A stretch of 64,000 nucleotides of DNA from a bacterium (lineage in GTDB: Bacteria; Patescibacteriota; Minisyncoccia; Phycocordibacterales; UBA1006), in NCBI GenBank assembly GCA_037144045.1, contig JBAWXN010000001.1, forward strand, positions 66,487-130,486, read 5' to 3'. Of the stretch, positions 12,131 to 37,097 are shown piece after piece. The position numbers were made by a program, and so were the translations under genes. A model generated the notes under the pieces. The model saw only the letters and a program-made list of their open reading frames with translations. It searched no databases and was not told the DNA's origin. The stretch's first letter is position 1, and the number at the start of each line of letters is the position of its first letter.

Positions 12131-12244
12131 ATGACATCAGAAACCGATTGAGTGCCGATCGAACGAATGAGATTATAAAGTGTTGTTTTACTAGTCTTAA
12201 TTTAAACGTCAAGAGTGAAAACCCTTGGCGTCAATTTTTGCGTT

Positions 12245-15200
12245 ATGGCACAAAAAAAAGCTGTTCAAACCCTTGCAAGTGCCAAGTATTATTCGGGTCC
12301 CCGAGAAGTGAAAACATTCTCGAAGTACCGAATGCCACTTGCCCCTATTCCTCATTTGGTCGAAAATCAATTAGCATCATACAAAAAGTTCATCGAACAT
12401 GACCTTGCAGAAACCATTAAGGAATTTTCTCCGATGGCTGACTATTCTGCGAAAAAGTTCGAACTCGTAATCGCATCACTTACGGTGAATGCGCCAGATT
12501 ACGATGTTAATCATGCAAAAGAAAACAAGTTAACCTACGAAGCTGAAGTAAAGGCGCGTATTAAACTTAAAAATAAAGTTCTTGGAGTAGAAAAAGAACA
12601 AGAAATCTTCTTGTCTGAAATTCCACTCATGACTGAAAACGGAACATTCGTTATTAATGGTGTAGAACGTGTAGTCGTTCCACAGCTTGCTCGATCTGCA
12701 GGTGTTTCATTTAATGATCGTCAAACTAAAAAAGGACGTTATTTCGGTGCAAAAATCATTCCTAACCGAGGAGCATGGATCGAAATTGAATCTGAATCAG
12801 ATAATGTTGTTTACGTACGTATCGATAAAAAACGAAAATTCGTAGTTACCTCGCTCTTGCGAGTTCTTGGTGTTGCGTCAGATGAAGCAATTGCAAAATT
12901 GTTTAAAAATGAAGTAGCACTTGGATATATCAAGTCATCACTTGGTAAAGACCCTGCAAAATCAACCGGTGAATCATTCGTAGAAATTTACCGAAAATTA
13001 CGAGACGGAGAAATTGCTTCTGCAGACAACGCAAAAGAATTCGTAGAATCAATCCTTTCAGAAGAACGTTACGATCTTTCAAATGTAGGACGTTATTCAT
13101 TTAACAAACGATTTGGGAAGAAGATGGACGAAGTCGCACTTGCAGGAATGACTCTTACGGTGGACGACGTGGTGACCATTATTGAAAAAATTGCAGAATT
13201 AAACAGTACTCCTAAGGCGAAAGCAGATGATATCGACCACTTAGCACACCGACGCGTTAAATTCGTAGGGGAACTTTTGCTACGAGAAGTTTCTGTAGGT
13301 ATGCTTCGTATTCGTCGTAACGTTCAAGACAAAATGTCTACTATTGATACGGAAACAACACTTCCTATTCAAATTTTGAACCAACGACCATTGCAAGCCG
13401 TAATCAAGGGATTCTTTTCAACGAACCAGTTGTCACAATTCCAAGCTCAAGAAAACCTCCTTGCAGAGGTAGAACACTTGCGAACCTTGTCCGCTCTTGG
13501 ACCCGGTGGACTTACTCGTGAACGAGCAGGATTCGAAGTACGTGACGTACACACGAGTCACTACGGACGATTGTGTCCAATCCATACTCCAGAAGGTCCA
13601 AACATTGGATTGATTTTACACATGTCGCTCTATGCTCGCGTAAACGATTTCGGAATGATTGAAACTCCTTACATTAAAGTTAAGAACGGAAAAATCACTC
13701 AAGAAATTGTGTACATGAACGCAATGGAAGAAGAACAATATACAATTGCGCACGCAGGATTGTTGTACGACAAAGACGGTAAAATCCTCGAAGACATTGT
13801 AGAAGCACGTATTAAAACAGCTCCAGGTATGGTTTCAAAAAACCAAGTGGATTATATCGACATCGCCCCTAACCAAGCCTTTTCGGTAGGTTCTTCAATG
13901 ATTCCATTTTTGGAACACGACGACGCAAAACGAACCCTTATGGGATCAAACATGCAGAAGCAGGCAATGCCATGTGTAGTTCCTATGGCGCCATTGGTTG
14001 CAACAGGAATGGAAGAACGAGCAGCACTTGATAGTGGACGCCTCATTGTAGCTCTTGAAGATGGAGTAGTTGCCGTTGCTGATGGGCAAGAAATTCAAAT
14101 CAAGGCATCAAATGGAAAAACAAAAGAATATCCATTAACGCTTTATAAGCGAACCAACCAGAATACGATGTATCACAATCGTCCTATTGTTGCGGTGGGT
14201 GATAAAGTTAAAAAAGGACAAGTATTGGCTGATGGAGCTGCAACTGCAAACGGGCAATTGGCACTCGGACAAAATGTATTGGTAGCCTTTATGTGTTGGA
14301 ATGGTGCAAACTACGAAGACGCGATTATCCTTTCAGAACGATTGGTTAAAAATAGTATCTTTACTTCAATCCACATTCACGAAGAAGAATGTGTGGTTCG
14401 TGATACTAAATTAGGTGAAGAACAAACAACGCACGATATTCCTAACGTCGGTGAAGGTCGTTTGAAAGACTTGGATGAAGACGGAATTGTACGTGTCGGA
14501 GCAGAAATCCGAGAAGGAGACATCCTTGTAGGAAAAGTTACTCCAAAAGGTGAAACTGAACTTACTCCAGAAGAACGATTGTTACGATCAATCTTCGGTG
14601 AAAAAGCACGAGACGTAAAAGATACTTCACTTCGTATGGGACACGGTAAAAAGGGTCGTGTGGTAGGGGTTAAAGTATTTTCTCGAGAAGCAGGTCACGA
14701 ATTGGAATCAGGAGTAATCAAGAAAATTTACATTGAAATCGCTCAATTGCGTAACGTTCAAGTAGGAGACAAGCTTGCAGGACGACACGGAAACAAGGGG
14801 GTAATTTCAGTAATCTTGCCAGAAGAAGACATGCCATACATGGCAGATGGAACACCGGTTGATGTAGTACTTACCGCACTCGGAGTATCGTCACGTATGA
14901 ACCTTGGACAGATTCTTGAAATGCACTTGGGACTTGCAGCAAATAGTTTGCATTACCAAGCAGTGGTTCCACCATTTGCAGGTGCCGTACCAGAAGAAAT
15001 TAAAGAAGAACTTGAAGCTGCAGGATTTGCCGCTTCAGGAAAAATGAAATTGTTTGACGGACGAACCGGTGAAGCATTTGATCAAGACGTGGCGGTGGGA
15101 TACATGTATATCTTGAAACTTTCCCACATGGTGGAAGACAAGATGCATGCACGTTCAGTTGGTCCATACAGTTTGATTACTCAACAACCATTGGGAGGAA

Positions 15201-15484
15201 AATCTCAACATGGTGGTCAGCGATTCGGAGAAATGGAAGTGTGGGCATTGGAAGGATACGGAGCGGCATATACCCTCCGAGAAATGCTCACGGTAAAATC
15301 CGATGACATCATGGGACGTACGGCAACATTCGATGCAATTATTAAAGGGATTCATATGAAGGAACCTAATACCCCTGCATCATTTAAAGTAATGTTGAAC
15401 TACCTCCGAGGACTTTCACTCGATGTGAAACTAGAAGGGTCGAAGAAAAATTATGAGGAAACCTATGAAGAAGCTGCTGAATAA
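12245..15484 (+). CDS. rpoB: DNA-directed RNA polymerase subunit beta
   Basis: Conserved beta-subunit blocks throughout (e.g. RLCPIHTPEGPNIGL, GDKLAGRHGNKGV, GGQRFGEMEVWALEGYGAAY). The ORF track begins at 12215; MAQKK at 12245 aligns better with rpoB N-termini. Confidence 0.95.
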   Translation: MAQKKAVQTLASAKYYSGPREVKTFSKYRMPLAPIPHLVENQLASYKKFIEHDLAETIKEFSPMADYSAKKFELVIASLTVNAPDYDVNHAKENKLTYEAEVKARIKLKNKVLGVEKEQEIFLSEIPLMTENGTFVINGVERVVVPQLARSAGVSFNDRQTKKGRYFGAKIIPNRGAWIEIESESDNVVYVRIDKKRKFVVTSLLRVLGVASDEAIAKLFKNEVALGYIKSSLGKDPAKSTGESFVEIYRKLRDGEIASADNAKEFVESILSEERYDLSNVGRYSFNKRFGKKMDEVALAGMTLTVDDVVTIIEKIAELNSTPKAKADDIDHLAHRRVKFVGELLLREVSVGMLRIRRNVQDKMSTIDTETTLPIQILNQRPLQAVIKGFFSTNQLSQFQAQENLLAEVEHLRTLSALGPGGLTRERAGFEVRDVHTSHYGRLCPIHTPEGPNIGLILHMSLYARVNDFGMIETPYIKVKNGKITQEIVYMNAMEEEQYTIAHAGLLYDKDGKILEDIVEARIKTAPGMVSKNQVDYIDIAPNQAFSVGSSMIPFLEHDDAKRTLMGSNMQKQAMPCVVPMAPLVATGMEERAALDSGRLIVALEDGVVAVADGQEIQIKASNGKTKEYPLTLYKRTNQNTMYHNRPIVAVGDKVKKGQVLADGAATANGQLALGQNVLVAFMCWNGANYEDAIILSERLVKNSIFTSIHIHEEECVVRDTKLGEEQTTHDIPNVGEGRLKDLDEDGIVRVGAEIREGDILVGKVTPKGETELTPEERLLRSIFGEKARDVKDTSLRMGHGKKGRVVGVKVFSREAGHELESGVIKKIYIEIAQLRNVQVGDKLAGRHGNKGVISVILPEEDMPYMADGTPVDVVLTALGVSSRMNLGQILEMHLGLAANSLHYQAVVPPFAGAVPEEIKEELEAAGFAASGKMKLFDGRTGEAFDQDVAVGYMYILKLSHMVEDKMHARSVGPYSLITQQPLGGKSQHGGQRFGEMEVWALEGYGAAYTLREMLTVKSDDIMGRTATFDAIIKGIHMKEPNTPASFKVMLNYLRGLSLDVKLEGSKKNYEETYEEAAE

Positions 15485-15512
15485 GCATTCTTATTAACCT
15501 CATCACTCAACT

Positions 15513-18500
15513 ATGAATACTAAAGATCATACAACATTCACCCCAGATACGATTTCACTTTCATTAGCATCACCAGAACGCATTCGCGAATGGTCATACG
15601 GTGAAGTATTGAAGCCAGAAACTATTAACTATCGAACCGGTCGTTCTGAACGAGGCGGGCTTTTCGACGAAAAAGTGTTCGGTCCTGAAAAAGACTACGA
15701 ATGTTACTGTGGAAAATATAAGCGCATTCGTTACGCAGGTATTGTGTGTGAAAAATGTGGCGTAGAAGTTACGAAAGCTATCGTACGTCGTGAACGTATG
15801 GGGCATATTGAACTTGCGTCTCCGGTTGCACACATCTGGTTCTTGCGAGGAATTCCATCACGAATGTCAACATTGCTTGATATTCCTATTAATCAACTCG
15901 AAAAAGTAATTTACTTTGCGGGGTACATTGTTACTGAAATTCATCAATCTGAAAAAGATCGTGTTTTGAAGGAACTTGATAACGAATACAAGATTCGAAT
16001 GAAGACGTTGGATACCGATGAAGAAAAAGACAAATTGAAAGACCTCTTTTCATCAACCAAAAAAGACTTGGTAGATTTATTACCATGGCGTATTTTAACA
16101 GAAGTTGAATTCCACAAGTTTTCAATGAAATTCAGTACCGTGTTTGAAGCATCGATTGGTGCAGAAGCGGTATACGAAGTATTTAAAAAACTTGATTTAA
16201 ATGAACTTGCAGCAACCCTCGAAAAAAAGCTTGAAAAAGACCCTGCAGCTCGTGAACGTATTGAACGACGGTTGCACATGATTCGTGCATTGATTGCGTC
16301 TAACCAACGTCCTGAATGGATGTTCCTTACTGCAATTCCAGTGATTCCTCCAGCTTTACGACCGATGGTGGCTCTTGAAGGTGGGCGTCATGCAACATCA
16401 GACGTAAACGATTTGTACCGTCGTGTAATTAATCGAAACTCTCGATTGAAGAAACTGAAAGAAATTGGTGCGCCGGATGTTATCTTGCGAAACGAAAAGC
16501 GTATCTTGCAAGAAGCATGTGACTCATTGATTGATAACACAATTCGAAAACACTCAGGATCAGTTGCGATGTCACAAGCACAGCGACGACAATTGAAATC
16601 ACTTGCCGATTCATTGAAAGGAAAGCAAGGTATTTTGCGTGCGAACCTCCTTGGAAAGCGTGTAGACTATTCTGGACGTTCGGTAATTGTGGTAGGTCCA
16701 AGTTTGAAATTGAATCAATGTGGACTTCCTAAATTTATGGCACTTGAATTGTTCCGACCATTCGTTATTTCAAAAATCTTGAAACGAGAATTGGCATATA
16801 ACATTCGTGGTGCTGGAAAGCTTATCGAAGACGGAGCTCCAGAAGTTTGGGAAATCCTTGAAGAAGTAATTGACGGAAAATATGTATTGTTGAACCGTGC
16901 TCCTACGCTTCATCGATTGTCTATTCAAGCATTCAACCCAGTACTTATCGAAGGTAAGGCGATCCAGGTGCACCCATTGGTATGTTCAGCGTTTAACGCT
17001 GACTTCGACGGGGACCAGATGGCGGTACATGTACCTCTTTCAGAAGAAGCACAAATCGAAGCACGAGAATTAATTGCGTCAAATAAAAACCTCCTTAAAC
17101 CACAATCAGGGGATCCGGTTACACAACCATCACAAGACATTGCGCTTGGATGTTACTGGGCAACAAAAATTGTTCCTGGAGTACTTGGTGAAGGAAAAAT
17201 GTTCTCAAGTCCAGAAGAAGCGGTAACAGCTTACGATCATAATATTATTGATGTGCGATCAAAAATCTACGTGTTGCCAAATGATAGTCAAAAATATGCA
17301 GCATTTGAAGGAAAAGTATTTGAAACCAGTGTTGGACGAATTTTGTTTAACAATGTATGGCCTGATGACTTTGAATTCGTAAACAGTGAAGTAAACAAAA
17401 AAGCCGTTTCAAATATTTTGGAAACTGCTATCAATAAATATGGTTTTGATGCAACAACACCATTATTGGATACGGTGAAAATGTTTGGATATAAATTTGC
17501 AACTAAATCAGGAACCACAATTGGTATCGACGATGCATTGGTTCCACCTGAAAAGAAAGATATTATTATCGAAGCTCGAAAGGTTGAAGCACAAATTGTA
17601 GATCAGTTCATGGACGGACTTATTTCAGATGATGAACGTTACAACAAATTGATTGAACTTTGGGAAGGAGTTACTCGAAAAATTGAAAAAGCAATTGTAA
17701 GTCATTTGGCTGAATCTGAATCTATTCATGACCAGATTACATCAGGTGCTCGTGGTAACCCTGCACAGTTACGACAAATGGCAGGTATGAAAGGGGTAAT
17801 TGTAAACACCGCTGGACGACCAGTAGATTTCCCGATTATTGCTTCATATAAAGAAGGACTTTCACCAATTGAATACTTCATTACGAACCACGGATCACGA
17901 AAAGGGCTTACTGACACCGCGCTTAACACAGCTACTGCTGGATACATGACTCGAAAGTTGGTTATTGTAGCGCAGGACGTAGTAATCCTTGAAGAAGACT
18001 GTGGAACGAAAAAAGGAATGACGGTCAAGGCTGAAAATATCGATGGTATGCTGCGCCCAATTTCTAAAAACATTGTAGGACGCGTACTCGCAGAAACCGT
18101 TAAAGACGCTACAGGATCCGTATTGTTCAAGCGAGGTCACTTGATTGGACGTGAAGACGGAAAGGTTATCGATGAAGCAAAAATTGCAGAAGTGGTAATT
18201 CGATCACCGCTTACCTGTGATACATTACATGGAATTTGTCAGCAATGTTATGGACTCGATCTTGGACGAAACAAGATGGTGAAATACGGAGAAGCAGTAG
18301 GAATTGTTGCGGCTCAAGCTATTGGTGAACCAGGAACACAGCTTACACTGCGAACAATGCACGGAGGAGGGGTAGTAGGAAACGATATTACTGCCGGGCT
18401 TCCACGTGTAGCCGAATTGTTTGAATGTCGTGCGATTAAAATCCCTGCGGTTATTTCAGAAACCAAGGGTCAAGTAATTGAAATTAAAAATGATGGGGTG

Positions 18501-19151
18501 CAGAAAACAATTGTAGTGTTATCTGATTCAGCAAAATCTGATGCAGATAAATCAAAGGAATACCCTGTTGATCCACGACGTACTGTTTCAGTTAAAGTAG
18601 GGCAACAAGTAAATGTTGGAGACCTTATGACTGATGGTGCTGCAGATCCACAATCACTGTATGCTATTGCTGGATTCCATCGAGTTCAGGAATACATTAT
18701 TAGTGAAATTAACAAGGTGTATGAATTGCACAGTGCGCCAATTTCTCGAAAGCACTTGGAGATCATTGTGCGACAGATGTTCTCACGTATTCGTATCAAG
18801 AAAGCAAATGATACGGCGTTTACTACAGGACAAATTGTTGAACGAGGTGAATTTACCAAGCGCAACCGTATTGCTGAAGAATCAAACGGACTTGCCGCAG
18901 AAGGACTTGAACTCCTCCGAGGAATTACCGAAGTTTCACTTACGGCTAAATCATGGATGTCAGCCTCTGCGTTCGAACGTGTAACACGAGTATTGGTAAA
19001 CAATGCTATTGAAGCAGGACATGATGAGTTGCGAGGACTTATGGAAAACGTAATGATCGGAAACTTGATTCCAGCAGGAACAGGGTTGTCTGATGAATTC
19101 GTACCAGCCCTTAAAGACATTGTACGAACTACCGAAGAAGTGGCTGAATAA
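15513..19151 (+). CDS. rpoC: DNA-directed RNA polymerase subunit beta'
   Basis: Zn-finger [23 protein letters not shown]. Catalytic NADFDGDQM. Conserved C-terminal blocks. Length 1212 aa. Confidence 0.95.
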   Translation: [1212 protein letters not shown]

Positions 19152-19165
19152 TTTTAAGTAACACT

Positions 19166-20872
19166 ATGAATCGAAATACTGTTGAAACAATTAAACAGAA
19201 ACTATCGATTGAGTCGGTAGTGGGTTCATATGTGAAACTTGAAAAATCAGGAAAGAATTTTCGTGCCTGTTGTCCTTTTCATAATGAAAAGTCACCAAGT
19301 TTTTACGTAACAACAGATCGTGGTATTTACTATTGCTACGGTTGCCATAAAGGGGGAGACATATTCAGCTTTGTTCAAGAAATTGAAGGAGTTGCATTTG
19401 TTGATGCTCTTAAGACACTTGCCGAAAAAGCAGGGGTGACGCTCAATGACTACGCAGGCGAACAACCAAGCCGCGTAGGCATTTTGCGTGACATAATGGA
19501 AACGGCAACTAAATATTATGAAGTAGGATTGCGAACCAACAAGTCGGTAGTTGATTATCTGTTGGGACGAAGTATGACCAAAGAAACGATGGTTGCGTTT
19601 CGTGTTGGCTATGCTCAACAAGGATGGTCAGGGCTCTATGATGTTCTTAAGAAGAAATATTCTGATCAAGACATTCTTGCAACAGGGTTATGTATCCAAG
19701 GACAAAAAGGATTGTATGACCGATTTCGAGAACGCATTATGTTTCCTATTATGGACGCCCAGGGACGTGTTATTGCATTTACCGGGCGCGTGATGCCAGG
19801 AACCGAAGAAGCATCGAGGCCAGTGGGGAAATACATCAATTCACCAGAAACAGATTTGTATCATAAATCAGCAGTACTATTTGCCTTTGATAAAGCCAAG
19901 ACGAGTATTCATACAAATAACTTCGTCATCCTTGTAGAAGGACAAATGGATGCGATTATGAGTCATCAAGCAGGAATTACGAATTTAGTTGCACTTTCTG
20001 GTACTGCGAGTACCGAATTACAAATGAAGCAAATTGCTCGATTTACGAACAATGTAGCTATTTGTTTAGATGCTGATAATGCAGGACTTGCTGCAGCGCA
20101 GAAGACTGCTATGGTTGCGTACGCTCATGATATGAAGGTATTGGTCATTGATATTACTCAAGGGAAGGACCCAGCTGATATGGTTGCAGAAAACCCTGAG
20201 TTATGGAAAGAAACGGTGCGCCATCGAAAAGATTTCATTACATTTCGTCTAGAAAAAATGAAACAGCAGGGAAGTCTTGAAAACAAGGTCGCCATTGCTC
20301 ATAAAGAACTGTTTCCGATACTGGGATATATTCAATCACAAATAACATTGGATGATCGTCTCGGTGAAATTGCACACGTATTTGGATCAAGTACGATTGA
20401 ACCAGTTCGTAAAGAATTTGAAAAATTCATGCAACAGCAAGCACTTGATCCTATAGCACCACGTGATCAAGTATCAATGCCTCGTGTGGAGAAAGATCAA
20501 AAGAAAGAACTCGGAGAACGTATGATAGGAATCCTCTTGTTAGTCGAATCCCTTGAGTCGTTCCAGAAGTTACGCGAGACGTTTGAAAAAGTAGTTGGTT
20601 CTTTCGAAAATGCAAAACAGTCCATGACTGAACAACATCAAAAAGAAATCATGTTCCAGTGTGAACAAGTGCTTGGTGAACTTCCCGATATGATGCCTGC
20701 ATACGTGCGCGCATTTATGAATGATAGTGTTAGTTATGAATTGTTAGGTATTGATACTGAGCGCAAACGCCTCAGTGAGATCCTTGGGGTAGACCCAGGA
20801 AATACTGATATCCTTAAACAGATGCACACGCTCCAGGTTCGAAAAGACGAGCTCGTTCGTACTCGTCATTAA
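19166..20872 (+). CDS. dnaG: DNA primase
   Basis: CHC2 zinc finger [18 protein letters not shown] region ([16 protein letters not shown]). Confidence 0.9.
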
Positions 20873-20885
20873 TTGCACAAAGCTT

Positions 20886-22148
20886 ATGCCAAAACCAATC
20901 AAAAAAAAGACAACTAAAAAAGTAGCTCCAAAAAAAGTTGCCAAAAAGGCTCCTGTTAAAAAAGTAGCACCTAAGAAAGTTGCTGCGAAAAAAGTTGTTA
21001 AATCAACAAAAAAAGTAGCACCTAAAAAGGTAGCCAAGAAAAAAGGTGATTCAATGCCTGCTAAAGGACTCACTAAGGAAGAGATTAATGCGCGAGTAGC
21101 AGTATTACTTGATAAAGGAAAAAAACGACGGTTTCTTACCTATGATGAAATCCTTAAAGCGTTTCCTGATATTGAAGAAGATGTATTGTTCCTTGATGAA
21201 TTGTATGGGAAATTCGGTGATGCGGGAATTGATGTTATTGAAACAGGGGGACTCCTTTCTATGGATCCCGAACCAGATCCAGAACTTTCTGGTCGTCGGT
21301 ATGATCGCGCATCATCATCAAATGATTCTGTGCAAATGTATCTCAAGGAAATTGGAAAATATCCTTTGATTCGCGCTGCAGAAGAACGAGACCTTGCACA
21401 GAAGATTCTTGCAGGTGATGACGAAGCGCGCAACCTTCTTGCCCAAGCAAACTTGCGTTTAGTGGTGTCTATTGCGAAGAAATATTCTACACGTAGTGCA
21501 GACCTCACCCTCCTTGATTTAATTCAAGAAGGAAACATTGGATTGTATAAGGCAGTTGAAAAATTTGACTGGACGAAAGGATTTAAATTTTCTACGTATG
21601 CGACTTGGTGGATTCGACAGTCGATTACTCGAGCCTTGGCTGACCAGTCTCGAACGATTCGTATTCCGGTGCATATGGTTGAAACGATTTCAAAGTACAA
21701 GCAAGTAACGCGACGCCTTGAACAAGACCTGGGACGAACACCATTACCCGAAGAAATCGCTACCGAGATGGGTATTGAGGTAGAAAAGATCTATATGATT
21801 AACAAAATTAATCAATCTACGAAATCACTCGAAGAATCTATTGGTGGATCTGATGATGATAAGTCTACTCTTTCTGAATTCGTTGCTGATGACAAAATTA
21901 TGTCGCCTGACCGCGAAGCATCAAAACGAATATTACAAGATCAGTTTAAAGACATTCTCAACGATCTGTCACCTAAAGAGCAAAAGATTATTGAAATGCG
22001 TTATGGATTGATTGATGGTATTAATCACACGTTAGAAGAAGTAGGAAAGGAATTCGGGGTAACTCGTGAACGTATCCGACAAATCGAAGCAAAAGTACAT
22101 GATAAGATCCGTGCTAACGAAAAGATCATGAAGTTGCGAGACTACTAA
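20886..22148 (+). CDS. rpoD: RNA polymerase sigma factor, primary sigma-70 type, with lysine/alanine/proline-rich N-terminal tail
   Basis: Region 1.2, 2 ([26 protein letters not shown]), 3 and 4.2 ([20 protein letters not shown]) are present. The first 56 codons encode [11 protein letters not shown] repeats. An alternative internal start is the Met at 21054. Confidence 0.88.
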
Positions 22149-22160
22149 CAGAATTATTGT

Positions 22161-23396
22161 ATGGATTTTATTCAAAACGCACTCATATATACATCATTGT
22201 TCCTTGCGATTTACTTTCAAGTATTTCTATTTCTAACTTATATTGGGTGGCGAGAACATAAAGACGATCTACCTGGATTTGCTTCAGAAGACGCATTACC
22301 ATCAGTTTCGATTATGGTGCCCTGTTATAACGAAGAATCAACGGTTGTGGGAACTATTGAATCACTCCTTGCATCACATTATCCAAAAAGCAAGCTGAAA
22401 ATTGTAGTTATTGATGATGGATCGAAAGATGGCACATGGGTCAATGTTCAACCGTTTGCGCATAATTCACAAGTGGTCTTGCTTCAGAAGAAAAATGAAG
22501 GAAGTAAATTCGCAGCGCTCAACTTTGGATTACGTCACGTTACAACTGATATTGTGGGGTGCCTCGACGCAGATTCGTCGGTAGACAGCTTTGCTATTCG
22601 CAATTCAGTACAATGGTTTTCACGTGATGATGTAGGAGGTGTGGTACCTTCAATGGTTATTGATAATCCAAAGAGTATCATGCAGCACATGCAAAAAGTT
22701 GAATATGAAATAGCTACGTACCTTAAACAAGTACTCCACCAACTTGAATCGTTATATGTAGCTCCGGGACCACTTACACTCTTTAGAAAAAAGGTATTTG
22801 ACACCTTGGGTGAATATAAAGAAGCACATCATACGGAAGACTTAGAAATTGCGCTGCGCATGCAAATAGCGGGAATGCGACTCGTGCATTCTAAGGAGTC
22901 ATTGGTATATACCAAAGGTCCACGTACCTGGCCAGCGCTCCTTAAACAGCGCATTAGATGGACCTATGGGTTTATCAAGAATGTTCAAGACTATCGAGCC
23001 TATCTATTTTCGGCTCAGCTGGGTGATCTTTCGTTCTTTATTTTACCGTTTGCAATAATTTCATTGATTGTTGCCGTGCTCATGTTACCATTTACGGTAT
23101 GGCAAATTGTGGTACCTATTGTTACTACAGTGCAGCGGATCCTTACGGTTGGGTTTCATTTTTCACAACCTTCGTTTGATATTTTCTCCATCCCTAATCA
23201 AGGCTATGCCTGGCTTGGATACTTTGGATTACTATTCTTAGTATTCTCATTAGTTATTGGACGCAGAATCATACTGAAACAAAAATTACTGTCTTTTGAT
23301 TTATTAACAACACTTATCTATCCGTTCTTTGCATCATGGTGGACGCTACGTTCACTATGGAATGCCATCTGGTCAAAGAAAAGCAGTTGGCGATAA
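22161..23396 (+). CDS. membrane-embedded family-2 glycosyltransferase (processive synthase-like)
   Basis: GT2 motifs VPCYNEE, DDGSKDGT, DAD and QRIRWTYG (QxxRW), flanked by TM helices. Confidence 0.7.
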   Translation: MDFIQNALIYTSLFLAIYFQVFLFLTYIGWREHKDDLPGFASEDALPSVSIMVPCYNEESTVVGTIESLLASHYPKSKLKIVVIDDGSKDGTWVNVQPFAHNSQVVLLQKKNEGSKFAALNFGLRHVTTDIVGCLDADSSVDSFAIRNSVQWFSRDDVGGVVPSMVIDNPKSIMQHMQKVEYEIATYLKQVLHQLESLYVAPGPLTLFRKKVFDTLGEYKEAHHTEDLEIALRMQIAGMRLVHSKESLVYTKGPRTWPALLKQRIRWTYGFIKNVQDYRAYLFSAQLGDLSFFILPFAIISLIVAVLMLPFTVWQIVVPIVTTVQRILTVGFHFSQPSFDIFSIPNQGYAWLGYFGLLFLVFSLVIGRRIILKQKLLSFDLLTTLIYPFFASWWTLRSLWNAIWSKKSSWR

Positions 23397-24147: not shown

Positions 24148-24161
24148 ATAATGGGTACGTG

Positions 24162-24234
24162 AGCCGCTTCCCAGATTCGAACTGGGGACCTTCACTTTAC
24201 AAAAGTGTTGCTCTACCAACTGAGCTAAAGCGGC
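24162..24234 (-). tRNA. tRNA-Thr (anticodon UGU)
   Basis: Reverse complement GCCGCTTTAGCTCAGTTGGTAGAGCAACACTTTTGTAAAGTGAAGGTCCCCAGTTCGAATCTGGGAAGCGGCT has a 7-bp acceptor stem, D-arm GCTC/GAGC, anticodon loop TTTGTAA and T-arm CCCAG-TTCGAAT-CTGGG. CCA is not encoded. Confidence 0.85.
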
Positions 24235-34958: not shown

Positions 34959-35272
34959 AAGCTTCGTCACTTTTTAAATCGGTACAAGCCAAGTAATCCC
35001 CATGTTGGCAAGCGGAAATCGCTTGCATTTTATATGGGCATTTGCTATGATGGCTTTCGTCTCGCTAAAAAGCAGGCAATTGTATTTTGTCAACAGAAGC
35101 AAATCCGATTCACAAGAAATGTGTGAATGCGGATAGATTATGCATCTCATGTTCGAAGCAGAAGATTTTAAATTCTTTTGTTTCGTTCTATGAGAATACA
35201 AAACTGGAAGGTTCAATAAATTTTTACAAGAAACTTTATTGGGCATCAACTTCCTGTTTATTCTTTTTTAGT

Positions 35273-36835
<1,563 letters not shown>

Positions 36836-37056: not shown

Positions 37057-37097
37057 GTAAAGCAAAAACAACCCTGATTGGGTTGTTTTTGCTTTAC
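37057..37097 (+). terminator. strong hairpin (18-bp perfect stem) after 16S/ITS, terminator-like
   Basis: gtaaagcaaaaacaaccc-tgatt-gggttgtttttgctttac. No 23S or tRNA is recognisable in 36836-37056. Confidence 0.6.

Follow-up and report, generated by a model that had tools for sequence, protein, structure and literature searches.

The sigma factor gene downstream of dnaG in this Patescibacteria genome raises two questions, namely where its protein starts and what its first residues may do. The reading frame opens with 56 codons dominated by lysine, ahead of an in-frame ATG at which translation could alternatively begin. The locus lies in a 64-kb stretch of DNA (64,000 nucleotides, hereafter the window), whose coordinates are used throughout and whose relevant features are the following:

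19166..20872, + strand: dnaG (primase), the operon partner upstream of rpoD (open reading frame list; synteny in relatives)
20873..20885, + strand: dnaG-rpoD spacer of 13 nt, directly 5' of the start as assigned here, without a Shine-Dalgarno (SD) sequence, as is typical for the genome
20886..22148, + strand: rpoD/sigA, 420 codons plus stop, a primary-type sigma-70 family factor (Pfam regions, NCBIfam match, dnaG upstream)
20886..21053, + strand: lysine-repeat (KKxxx) N-terminal tail, codons 1-56, polycationic, predicted disordered, net charge +23
20914..20997, + strand: 15-nt (pentapeptide) tandem repeat core within the tail (Tandem Repeats Finder)
21054..21056, + strand: internal in-frame ATG (Met57), unconserved and not the main start
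21087..21251, + strand: region 1.1, residues 68-122 (Pfam PF03979, E 5.9e-12, 45.8 bits versus a cutoff of 22.5)
21252..21323, + strand: linker between regions 1.1 and 1.2, residues 123-146, predicted disordered, net charge -2 (AF2 pLDDT, charge count)
21324..21425, + strand: region 1.2, residues 147-180 (Pfam PF00140, E 8.6e-14)
21438..21656, + strand: region 2, residues 185-257 (Pfam PF04542, E 8.6e-22)
21681..21914, + strand: region 3, residues 266-343 (Pfam PF04539, E 1.1e-18)
21957..22112, + strand: region 4, residues 358-409 (Pfam PF04545, E 4.5e-15)

By its domain order and best matches the encoded protein reads as a group 1, RpoD/SigA-type sigma factor. Regions 1.1, 1.2, 2, 3 and 4 occur in order, each above its Pfam gathering score. 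The assignment is made despite missed equivalog cut-offs: the best NCBIfam match, RpoD PRK09210, scores 404.8 bits (cutoff 572) and TIGR02393 (RpoD_Cterm) 324.3 bits (cutoff 354), shortfalls that are expected because the phylum is deeply divergent. The PRK09210 alignment starts at residue 64 and region 1.1 at residue 68, in agreement with an earlier note on this DNA, which placed the first recognisable sigma region at about position 21060. The classical dnaG-rpoD order is present, with dnaG ending 13 nt upstream, and it recurs in related loci wherever upstream sequence is available; rpoB and rpoC are adjacent genes. The Pfam domains of DnaG were seen on the identical dnaG gene of locus L081. 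No promoter-like or terminator-like site was found in the dnaG-rpoD spacer.

The tail consists of 24 Lys, 9 Val, 8 Ala, 6 Pro, 3 Thr and 2 Ser residues plus Met, Ile, Gly and Asp, with a net charge of +23, and is followed by M57 (ATG 21054-21056) and the residues PAKGLTKEE. Its KK doublets are found at residues 6, 11, 16, 20, 25, 30, 35, 42, 47 and 51, and Tandem Repeats Finder reports a period of 15 nt (5 codons) with 5.8 copies and 63% matches. The lysine-rich opening described in the earlier note is real, and so is its repeat; the 9-residue KKVAPKKVA unit proposed there, however, resolves into two KKxxx units of roughly 4.5 residues. AF2 gives a pLDDT of 35-45 over residues 1-57 without secondary structure, and the tail is thus a Lys-repeat segment with a KKxxx pattern, cationic almost throughout and intrinsically disordered in the model. 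Pentapeptide-spaced Lys doublets, a near absence of acidic residues and a nucleic-acid-binding host, the marks of lysine-repeat tails, are all found in the window sigma. The tail is the densest Lys stretch of the window (14 Lys in 30 residues, the next best being 9, among about 54 crude ORFs). A genome-wide habit of Lys-rich tails was considered and rejected, as no other ORF of the 64-kb window carries one.

Comparison with relatives shows that translation begins at the upstream ATG and that the product of the 56 codons forms the N-terminus of the primary sigma factor. Met57, which the earlier note had considered a possible true start, was rejected on its non-conservation, dN/dS, the loss of the anti-SD and the lack of a promoter signal. 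The residue aligned to it in the 120 closest homologues is Leu in 32, Gln in 22, Ser in 21, Pro in 11, Val in 9, Ala in 9 and Met in only 6. The tails of the window and L081 differ by seven synonymous changes and one nonsynonymous change (omega 0.037; binomial p = 2e-4), and against L084 omega is 0.31 in the tail versus 0.018 in the core, the charge class being kept at 52 of 56 positions. The 16S rRNA of the organism lacks the CCUCC anti-SD core and gene starts in the genome are SD-less; no promoter-like site was found within or before the tail. The tail DNA, 51% of which is A, is open in the sense frame and the mirroring antisense frame only, and of shuffles that preserve composition 1.9% leave the tail frame open.

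Extensions of this kind were found in 120 of the 120 closest homologues (68-100% identity), with lengths of 23-92 aa (median 70), 39% Lys, about 0.6% Asp plus Glu, a net charge of +10 to +38 and a M-[PA]-x-K-rich start. All 14 GTDB loci (L001-L014) carry basic extensions, whereas the Bacillota controls lack them. Among these 14 loci, 12 retain dnaG, and in 10 of them the distance from its stop to the first ATG of the tail ORF is -8 to +54 nt. Tail lengths across the close homologues and these loci range from 23 to 110 codons. When sigma factors were clustered at 50% identity, polycationic extensions occurred in approximately 17 of 59 clusters; among ten tailed representatives, the one that bears a taxon name belongs to Lloydbacteria. 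For the encoding contigs, the exact window protein (P0001) had no match and the close relatives P0003 and P0008 were taken instead. A 99%-identical gene is present in samples 3300045394 and 3300045398. Judged from these sequences, the lysine-repeat tail is a lineage-wide trait of the sigma factors of Patescibacteria (Paceibacterota and neighbouring groups). The alignment of related rpoD genes suggested in the earlier note thus answers in favour of a conserved tail of variable length (the 99%-identical proteins P0031 and P0043 differ by 35 aa in frame), and orthologues starting at the MPAKG position without an upstream frame were not seen among the 120.

The exact sequence of the tail is hardly retained: tail identity among homologues is near the shuffled level, while the cores are about 96% identical. 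What is retained is the pattern. Lys spacing is non-random family-wide, with an excess at lags 1, 4, 5 and 9 (z = 11-27), a deficit at lags 2-3 and autocorrelation maxima at lags 4-5 and 9. The cationic fraction lies at 0.35-0.55 over a locus GC content of 31-58% in 16 of 17 loci (the exception is L071, with 0.25), and Arg takes the place of Lys as locus GC rises (Spearman 0.70, p = 0.002, 17 loci). In the GC-rich loci L006 and L008 the A content of the tail is 0.33-0.35, yet the cationic fraction is still 0.41-0.48 by virtue of Arg. Since Arg replaces Lys in GC-richer relatives at a similar cationic fraction, charge rather than A-rich RNA is selected, and selection acts on positive charge and Lys-doublet spacing rather than on the precise order of residues. 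We regard translation of the tail and selection on it as nearly certain.

An origin by fusion with a free-standing histone-like ORF was rejected, as no K-rich ORF was found upstream of the tail-less or short-tailed loci L046, L060, L017, L016 and L019. Protein homology searches with the tail alone gave no match at E <= 0.001, nor did phmmer against the PDB at E <= 10, HMMER being blinded to low-complexity tails by its composition-bias correction.

Region 1.1 of primary sigma factors, according to work in E. coli and Thermus, is an acidic DNA mimic that resides in the DNA channel of RNA polymerase and autoinhibits free sigma. The earlier note took an acidic region 1.1 to be missing here. It is not absent, as the PF03979 match and the AF2 model attest: helices are predicted at residues 64-81, 86-92 and 100-112, with a mean pLDDT of 71-83 in 10-residue blocks over residues 61-120, falling below 50 for residues 120-140. 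Its acidity, in contrast, is reduced, and the strong net negative charge of a canonical region 1.1 was not found: residues 57-122 carry -4, and residues 57-146 (region 1.1 plus linker) carry -6. The same segment has a median charge of -5 in tailed loci versus -18 in a set of 47 tail-less SigA proteins (p = 3e-7), and the median region 1.1 charge in 117 close homologues is -6. By Pfam match, model and charge counts, the fold has thus been retained while acidity has largely been lost relative to Bacillota-type SigA. With a tail of +23 and most of the region 1.1 acidity gone, the N-terminal region ahead of region 1.2 has an overall charge of about +17 in the window sigma. The idea that the charges of tail and region 1.1 are strictly coupled was rejected; on broader representatives the association is weak (p = 0.014), and P0129, P0190 and P0253 combine large tails with an acidic region 1.1. 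The association is therefore a clade feature, resting largely on one clade, and not a rule.

Lysine-repeat additions are already known on other bacterial DNA-handling proteins, and the Patescibacteria sigma tail is a variant of these. The nearest parallel is the KKxxx block of Streptomyces HrdB, also a group 1 sigma factor with a low-complexity Lys-repeat block, whose KK doublets at 130-160 lie exactly 5 residues apart seven times; the pentapeptide KK pattern is common to HrdB and the window tail. The HC2 score of HrdB is likewise sub-threshold (22 bits, compared with 14-27 bits for the window tail and its orthologues). The two differ in that the HrdB block follows a region-1.1-like segment, inside the 1.1-1.2 linker, while the window block precedes region 1.1 at the extreme N-terminus, and in that an acidic stretch of -17 leaves the N-terminal region of HrdB about neutral (-1), whereas the window sigma, at +17, has no such counterweight. 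HrdB, from a high-GC genome, has repeats rich in Ala and Thr; the window spacers are Val/Ala/Pro in a genome of about 40% GC. The block and the tail probably arose independently. A survey that noted the lysine repeats of HrdB and of Bordetella pertussis RpoD considered such repeats typical of DNA-binding proteins and proposed them as a mark of GC-rich genomes (PMC5714199); the occurrence of the tail at about 40% GC weakens the latter idea. Lysine acetylation of HrdB was discarded as a regulatory analogy, since the acetylated residue, K259, falls in the non-conserved stretch that separates regions 1.2 and 2, outside the repeats.

A second comparison is offered by the analogue studied in most depth, M. 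tuberculosis sigma A, of which the first ~130 residues are basic. Its long, disordered and lineage-specific N-terminal extension, carried by an essential primary sigma factor, is unseen in structures; the acidic segment 132-179 is essential, but deletion of the first 42, 92 or 132 residues left promoter binding, in vitro transcription and complementation unchanged (PMC10011835). The Patescibacteria tail differs in having no acidic segment and in standing ahead of a recognisable region 1.1. HupB/Hlp/HupS, Ku and topoisomerase I likewise bear modular, disordered, acid-free Lys pentapeptide repeats on nucleic-acid proteins, albeit at the C-terminus, in Actinobacteria and on hosts that are not sigma factors. 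For these mycobacterial and streptomycete tails, DNA contact, complex stabilisation, processivity or end apposition was demonstrated experimentally (PMC5714199, PMC3553676), and the authors of the Ku study proposed that such tails evolved repeatedly and independently (PMC3553676). Streptomyces DdbA, in which an H1-like N-terminal domain is fused to a DksA-like RNA polymerase-binding domain, is similar in carrying N-terminal Lys pentapeptide repeats ([ST][AT]AKK) on a protein that acts on RNA polymerase, and in vitro the segment both binds DNA and condenses it (PMC3643593); DdbA, however, is an accessory factor of the secondary-channel type and a developmentally regulated nucleoid protein, not a promoter-recognition subunit.

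The description of the tail as histone-H1-like in the earlier note is apt for composition and not for descent. As in chlamydial Hc2 and the H1 C-terminal domain, the sequence is K/A/P-rich, polycationic and disordered, and HC2 (PF07382) is the only Pfam family that the tail touches, at 14.1 bits (E 0.053) versus a cutoff of 40; the orthologues P0057 and P0105 reach 25.5 and 27.5 bits, still below it. No linker-histone Pfam match to the window sigma was found even at E <= 10, no globular domain is present, and the tail contains four APKK motifs while SPKK and TPKK are absent. The resemblance is one of composition and not a matter of homology.

We tentatively propose, as a mechanism that we hold to be somewhat short of probable, that the tail is a non-sequence-specific electrostatic tether for nucleic acid, DNA in particular. 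It would hold sigma or the holoenzyme on the nucleoid, might aid promoter search, and could add contacts with flanking DNA that stabilise initiation complexes, and region 1.1, being only weakly acidic, would have ceased to be a strong DNA mimic that opposes binding by the tail. Lysine repeats are over-represented among DNA-binding proteins, and in TopA they stabilise the complex with DNA (PMC5714199); the PAKKA repeats of Ku and Hlp contact DNA (PMC3553676), and DdbA provides the case of an RNA polymerase-binding protein. Removal of the lysine tail from Ku, in contrast, raised its DNA affinity instead of lowering it (PMC3553676); the effect on affinity is not uniform across Lys-tail proteins, and a tail does not automatically mean more binding. 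The M. tuberculosis sigma A deletions imply, moreover, that disordered sigma N-termini can be dispensable in standard assays. A polycation could equally bind RNA, polyphosphate or acidic protein surfaces. Towards the combined view, that the tail is translated, selected and a DNA tether, we lean by a small margin.

The tail might alternatively be a regulatory polycation that acts in cis or in trans, folding onto acidic surfaces (the 1.1-1.2 linker or patches on RNA polymerase) or binding RNA or polyphosphate, and so tuning sigma-core association, sigma availability or condensates. The disordered polycation adjoins a DPEPDPE-containing linker, and the pairing of a +21 basic block with a -17 acidic stretch suggests intramolecular charge pairing in HrdB. 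Phosphorylation within the disordered N-terminus of M. tuberculosis sigma A modulates its function with DNA binding unchanged (PMC10011835), and polyphosphate-binding proteins are reported for E. coli in a further study (PMC12345225). However, residues 57-146, at only -6, provide too little charge to neutralise +23, and KKxxx is the pattern documented on DNA-binding tails. We consider such a regulatory role unlikely, albeit the best placed of the alternatives.

A harmless expansion of slippage-prone, A-rich repeats at the 5' end of the gene, tolerated without a specific function, would account for the 15-nt DNA periodicity, for a length and sequence so labile that tail identity approaches the shuffled level, for the 35-aa in-frame difference between 99%-identical proteins and for the lack of phenotype of the M. 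tuberculosis sigma A deletions. It does not accord with the purifying selection seen in the tail (omega 0.037 and 0.31, with 52 of 56 positions kept by charge class), its retention without exception in the 120 close homologues and in the 14 Patescibacteria loci that are more distant, the K-to-R compensation that follows GC content, the near exclusion of acidic residues (about 0.6%) or the want of a comparable stretch in any other protein of the window, and it is in our judgement distinctly improbable.

The species group might also make two isoforms, the long form and a short form initiated at Met57, and hence tailed and tail-less sigma pools. The six closest relatives (P0001-P0006) share the ATG at 21054. 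Upstream of it lies AAAGGTGAT, which resembles an SD sequence and has a duplex energy of -8.9 with a canonical anti-SD, a value reached by 3.7% of random positions. Yet AAAGGTGAT has no canonical partner because the 16S rRNA of the organism lacks CCUCC, and it simply encodes KKGDS; 114 of the 120 homologues have no Met at the equivalent position, and no internal promoter-like site was found. We give two isoforms little credence.

Selection on the mRNA, whereby an A-rich and unstructured start of the coding sequence would favour SD-independent initiation where the anti-SD is missing, is very improbable: the A content of 51% and the SD-less genome would suit it, but tails of 23-110 codons are far longer than an initiation region, the A content of the L006 and L008 tails drops to 0.33-0.35 with the cationic fraction upheld by Arg, the KK spacing is conserved in a reading-frame-specific manner, and synonymous changes accumulate freely while the amino acids are kept. 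That the 56 codons are untranslated, chance-open A-rich intergenic DNA ahead of a Met57 start, as the start of canonical Bacillota SigA near this position and at least one public annotation (Lloydbacteria OGZ11819.1, 360 aa) might suggest, is effectively refuted by the comparative sequence data, namely the unconserved Met57, the 7:1 ratio of synonymous to nonsynonymous changes, the rarity of an open frame in shuffles, the universal tail with its conserved M-[PA]-x-K start abutting dnaG, and the fact that OGZ11819.1 is annotated from an internal Leu-position codon within an open frame that its cluster mates conserve.

Automated annotation is thus inconsistent, at least one NCBI record omitting a 94-aa tail, and start sites merit re-examination when transcription is compared across Patescibacteria. 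A limited literature search found no description of a tail on Patescibacteria/CPR sigma factors, which does not by itself prove novelty. Carried further, the tether could mean that the N-terminus of the housekeeping sigma factor of Patescibacteria switched from DNA mimic to DNA seeker: with an acid-poor region 1.1 and a disordered tail of +20 to +38, sigma, free or in the holoenzyme, would be a nucleoid-associated, histone-like protein whose built-in tether replaces accessory factors and acidic gating in promoter search and open-complex stabilisation. This extension is speculative and we think it doubtful as a whole; if true, it would reflect adaptation to an ultra-small cell in which transcription factors are few. 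An uncultured radiation in which the region 1.1 fold was kept, its charge lost and a tail gained would offer a natural experiment that separates the roles of fold and charge. Even if the tail proved dispensable, which seemed to be the case for the first ~130 residues of M. tuberculosis sigma A, it would still be a well-supported instance of a disordered region whose evolution is constrained in charge and free in sequence.

RpoD is encoded in a cluster of four genes (12215-22148, + strand) which, with gaps of 28, 14 and 13 nt, look like a single operon; the order rpoC-dnaG-rpoD is also found in the related loci L001, L002, L004, L005 and L007.

Gene cluster and sigma regions of RpoD (regions by Pfam, all above gathering score).
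12215-15484, + strand, rpoB
15513-19151, + strand, rpoC
19166-20872, + strand, dnaG
20886-22148, + strand, rpoD, 420 codons
RpoD residues 68-122, region 1.1
RpoD residues 147-180, region 1.2
RpoD residues 185-257, region 2
RpoD residues 266-343, region 3
RpoD residues 358-409, region 4

The top NCBIfam model for RpoD is PRK09210, a Bacillota-type RpoD of 370 aa, with query residue 64 aligned to profile position 9; the closest solved structures are Bacillota SigA chains, whose alignments start at query residues 63-74 and chain residues 18-20. Since both alignments begin at residues 63-74, RpoD has about 56 surplus N-terminal residues (the tail). A family-2 glycosyltransferase gene (Glyco_transf_21 / Glyco_tranf_2_3; 22161-23396, + strand) lies 12 nt 3' of rpoD, and such a gene has the same position in the close relatives L081, L082 and L084.

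The 56 tail residues comprise 24 Lys, 9 Val, 8 Ala, 6 Pro and a single acidic residue (net charge +23). At 20914-20997 the tail DNA repeats in tandem every 15 nt (5.8 copies), equivalent to a KKxxx pentapeptide in the protein. The only open frames are the sense frame and its antisense mirror. Composition-preserving shuffles leave the frame open in 1.9% of cases, and no comparable Lys stretch was found in other ORFs of the window; the observation made in the earlier note is confirmed. The antisense ORF (20744-21073, - strand; 109 aa, rich in F, L, A and T) was rejected as a gene, being the mirror image of Lys/Ala/Val codons. Lys codons are AAA and AAG in a ratio of 19:5 and include A runs (8 A at 20901-20908, 7 A at 20930-20936); runs of this kind can cause ribosomes to slide or the polymerase to slip, and they may be a source of the in-frame length changes between relatives. 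AlphaFold2, given an alignment of 53 sequences, models residues 1-57 as coil (pLDDT 35-45), a folded region 1.1 (helices 64-81, 86-92 and 100-112; mean pLDDT 71-83 in blocks spanning residues 61-120) and a disordered 1.1-1.2 linker (residues 120-140).

The earlier note had offered Met57 (ATG at 21054-21056) as an alternative start. The 120 best homologs (68-100% identity; several named Patescibacteria, Pacebacteria or Nomurabacteria) are all 387-453 aa long and start with M-[PA]-x followed by a Lys-rich stretch. The related rpoD genes, which the note had wished to see aligned, thus carry the tail in 120 of 120 cases and at variable length (23-92 aa, median 70); these tails are 39% Lys and about 0.6% Asp+Glu, with net charges of +10 to +38. 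The residue aligned to Met57 is L in 32, Q in 22, S in 21, P in 11, V in 9, A in 9 and M in only 6. Compared with the 99% identical L081, the tail shows seven synonymous differences and one nonsynonymous (omega 0.037, core 0.014; binomial p = 2e-4, given 38/165 synonymous sites); compared with L084 omega is 0.31 (core 0.018), and the ungapped alignment keeps the same charge class at 52/56 positions. The tail ATG is 13 nt past the dnaG stop, a gap that measures -8 to +54 nt in 10 of the 12 loci of the L001-L014 series retaining dnaG, and neither a promoter-like nor a terminator-like site was found from the dnaG stop to residue 57.

The sole feature favouring Met57 is the SD-like AAAGGTGAT directly 5' of its ATG, which codes for KKGDS. 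The 16S rRNA gene (35266-36835, + strand) closes with ...GGATCAATTCAATT / ...GTGGATCAATTCAATT (3' end, 36820-36835) and hence lacks the CCUCC anti-SD core; helix 45, just 5' of this end, is intact, and no CCTCC was found in the 65 nt beyond it. Scored against the canonical anti-SD, 34 + strand gene starts (including 4525, 15513, 19166 and 22161) have a median of -1.1 kcal/mol, random positions pairing more strongly (mean -3.4), which fits a lost anti-SD. The 16S gene is isolated, the next gene being a protein ORF at 37078; neither 23S nor 5S rRNA was found across the 64-kb window, which makes the rRNA genes unlinked. The sole tRNA in the window is tRNA-Thr(TGT) (24161-24234, - strand).

Met57 was rejected as the true start on the scarcity of Met at this position, the purifying pattern in the tail, a 16S rRNA without a CCUCC partner for the SD-like motif and the lack of a promoter-like site. 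Judged from the sequences, five independent lines (conservation, Met57 variability, substitution pattern, gene layout and SD evidence) indicate that the tail is translated, and the main inference of the earlier note, a translated polycationic tail on sigma, proves correct. Start-site annotation of these genes is inconsistent: the Lloydbacteria RpoD record OGZ11819.1 (360 aa) is annotated with a downstream start, its first residue being an internal Leu position of its cluster mates P0121 and P0272 (452-454 aa), which have an open, conserved 94-aa basic tail. This short start is an annotation choice and no evidence for downstream initiation.

Among loci from GTDB species representatives, ranked by sigma-core similarity, the 14 most similar (among their titles Paceibacterota, Kaiserbacteria, Moraniibacteriota, Falkowbacteria and "Patescibacteria group", with several labelled Saccharibacteria) all have basic extensions of 26-110 aa. 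In Bacillota and other controls the extension is absent, of K/E mixed charge or acidic; in a few more distant Patescibacteria (L046, L060 and L017) it is absent or very short. Polycationic extensions occur in about 17/59 clusters (50% identity, region 1.1 aligning), reaching 312 aa and net +67. No free-standing K-rich ORF was found upstream in tail-less relatives; an origin by fusion of such an ORF is therefore unsupported, and we rejected it. N-terminal sigma extensions of another kind are seen in other lineages (L028, L037, L067 (Clostridia SigA loci), P0132, P0166, P0189 and others), either of K/E mixed charge (40-77 aa) or markedly acidic, with net charges as low as -38. At their very N-terminal end, primary sigma factors seem generally prone to gain low-complexity sequence.

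An acidic region 1.1, held to be missing in the earlier note, is present as a fold by both Pfam and AlphaFold2, albeit barely acidic. Over region 1.1 plus linker (about 90 residues in tailed and tail-less groups alike) the net charge is -6 in the window RpoD, with medians of -6 in close homologs (n=117), -5 in tailed loci (n=13) and -18 in tail-less sigmas (n=47; range -7 to -25). Tailed and tail-less groups differ (Mann-Whitney p = 3e-7), the tailed loci being one clade, so that the shift does not represent many independent events. Across broader representatives the association is weak (medians -7 vs -14, p = 0.014), and region 1.1 has stayed acidic in three proteins with large tails. RpoD region 1.1 has lost its acidity, and the tail brings the N-terminal region before region 1.2 to about +17.

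What precedes this weakly acidic region 1.1 is a polycation, translated and disordered, whose KKxxx pattern is conserved. We propose, by analogy with tails of the same pattern, that it may serve as a non-sequence-specific electrostatic nucleic-acid tether, most likely for DNA. Lysine repeats are found disproportionately in Streptomyces DNA-binding proteins, and they make the complex of TopA with DNA more stable (PMC5714199). In Ku and Hlp, PAKKA repeats touch DNA and favour end-joining (PMC3553676), and DdbA, an RNAP-binding factor, binds and condenses DNA through its H1-like N-terminus (PMC3643593). With such a tether, sigma or holoenzyme would become locally enriched on the nucleoid and/or gain further contacts with promoter-flanking DNA. 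Two reports weigh against a strong form of this claim: removal of the first 42-132 disordered N-terminal residues of M. tuberculosis sigma A left promoter binding, in vitro transcription and complementation unchanged (PMC10011835), and the Ku tail reduces DNA affinity rather than increasing it (PMC3553676). Binding of the tail intramolecularly, or to protein, RNA or polyphosphate, is a possible but less probable role.

The exact tail sequence is not under selection, tail identity being near the shuffled-tail level while cores are still about 96% identical; P0043 is P0031 minus 35 tail residues in frame and otherwise 99% identical, though its 1.6-kb contig makes assembly collapse possible. Charge and Lys spacing are the conserved properties: in the 120 tails, Lys-Lys lags of 1, 4, 5 and 9 are enriched (z = 11-27) and lags of 2-3 depleted (z = -40, -18). 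We consider a tolerated low-complexity expansion rather improbable, and dual isoforms in this species group, which the SD-like motif before Met57 might serve, very unlikely. In 16/17 loci (GC 31-58%) the (K+R)/length of the tail stays at 0.35-0.55 (exception L071, 0.25), while the Arg share increases with GC (Spearman 0.70, p = 0.002) and the A content of tail DNA is as low as about 0.33 in GC-rich loci, which rules out an A-rich mRNA leader alone as the target. Selection at the mRNA level is extremely improbable. An untranslated tail is, against the five lines, scarcely conceivable.

Streptomyces HrdB, its N-terminus checked against PDB chain 8k60_F, offers the closest precedent in its block of lysine repeats; B. 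pertussis RpoD carries a similar block (PMC5714199).

N-terminal region of HrdB.
Residues 18-79, region-1.1-like segment (Pfam 16.5 bits, below cutoff), net -5 (residues 1-75)
Residues 76-161, basic block, seven KK doublets exactly 5 apart, net +21
Residues 162-212, acidic stretch, net -17
Residues 1-212, entire N-terminal region before region 1.2, net -1

The pattern is alike, whereas the tail of the window RpoD is placed before region 1.1, without an acidic counterweight. Lysine repeats have been suggested to mark GC-rich genomes (PMC5714199); the host genome, at about 40% GC, argues against this. The likeness to histone H1/Hc2 put forward earlier holds for composition and not for homology: Pfam HC2 scores 14 bits for the tail and 25-27 bits for orthologs (cutoff 40), Pfam gives no hit to a globular domain of H1, and the tail has APKK in place of S/TPKK motifs. 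No description of a Patescibacteria sigma tail was found in the literature searched. By this comparison the tail extends a known class, the lysine-repeat tails on DNA-transaction proteins, principal sigma factors included. [quoted passage not shown]
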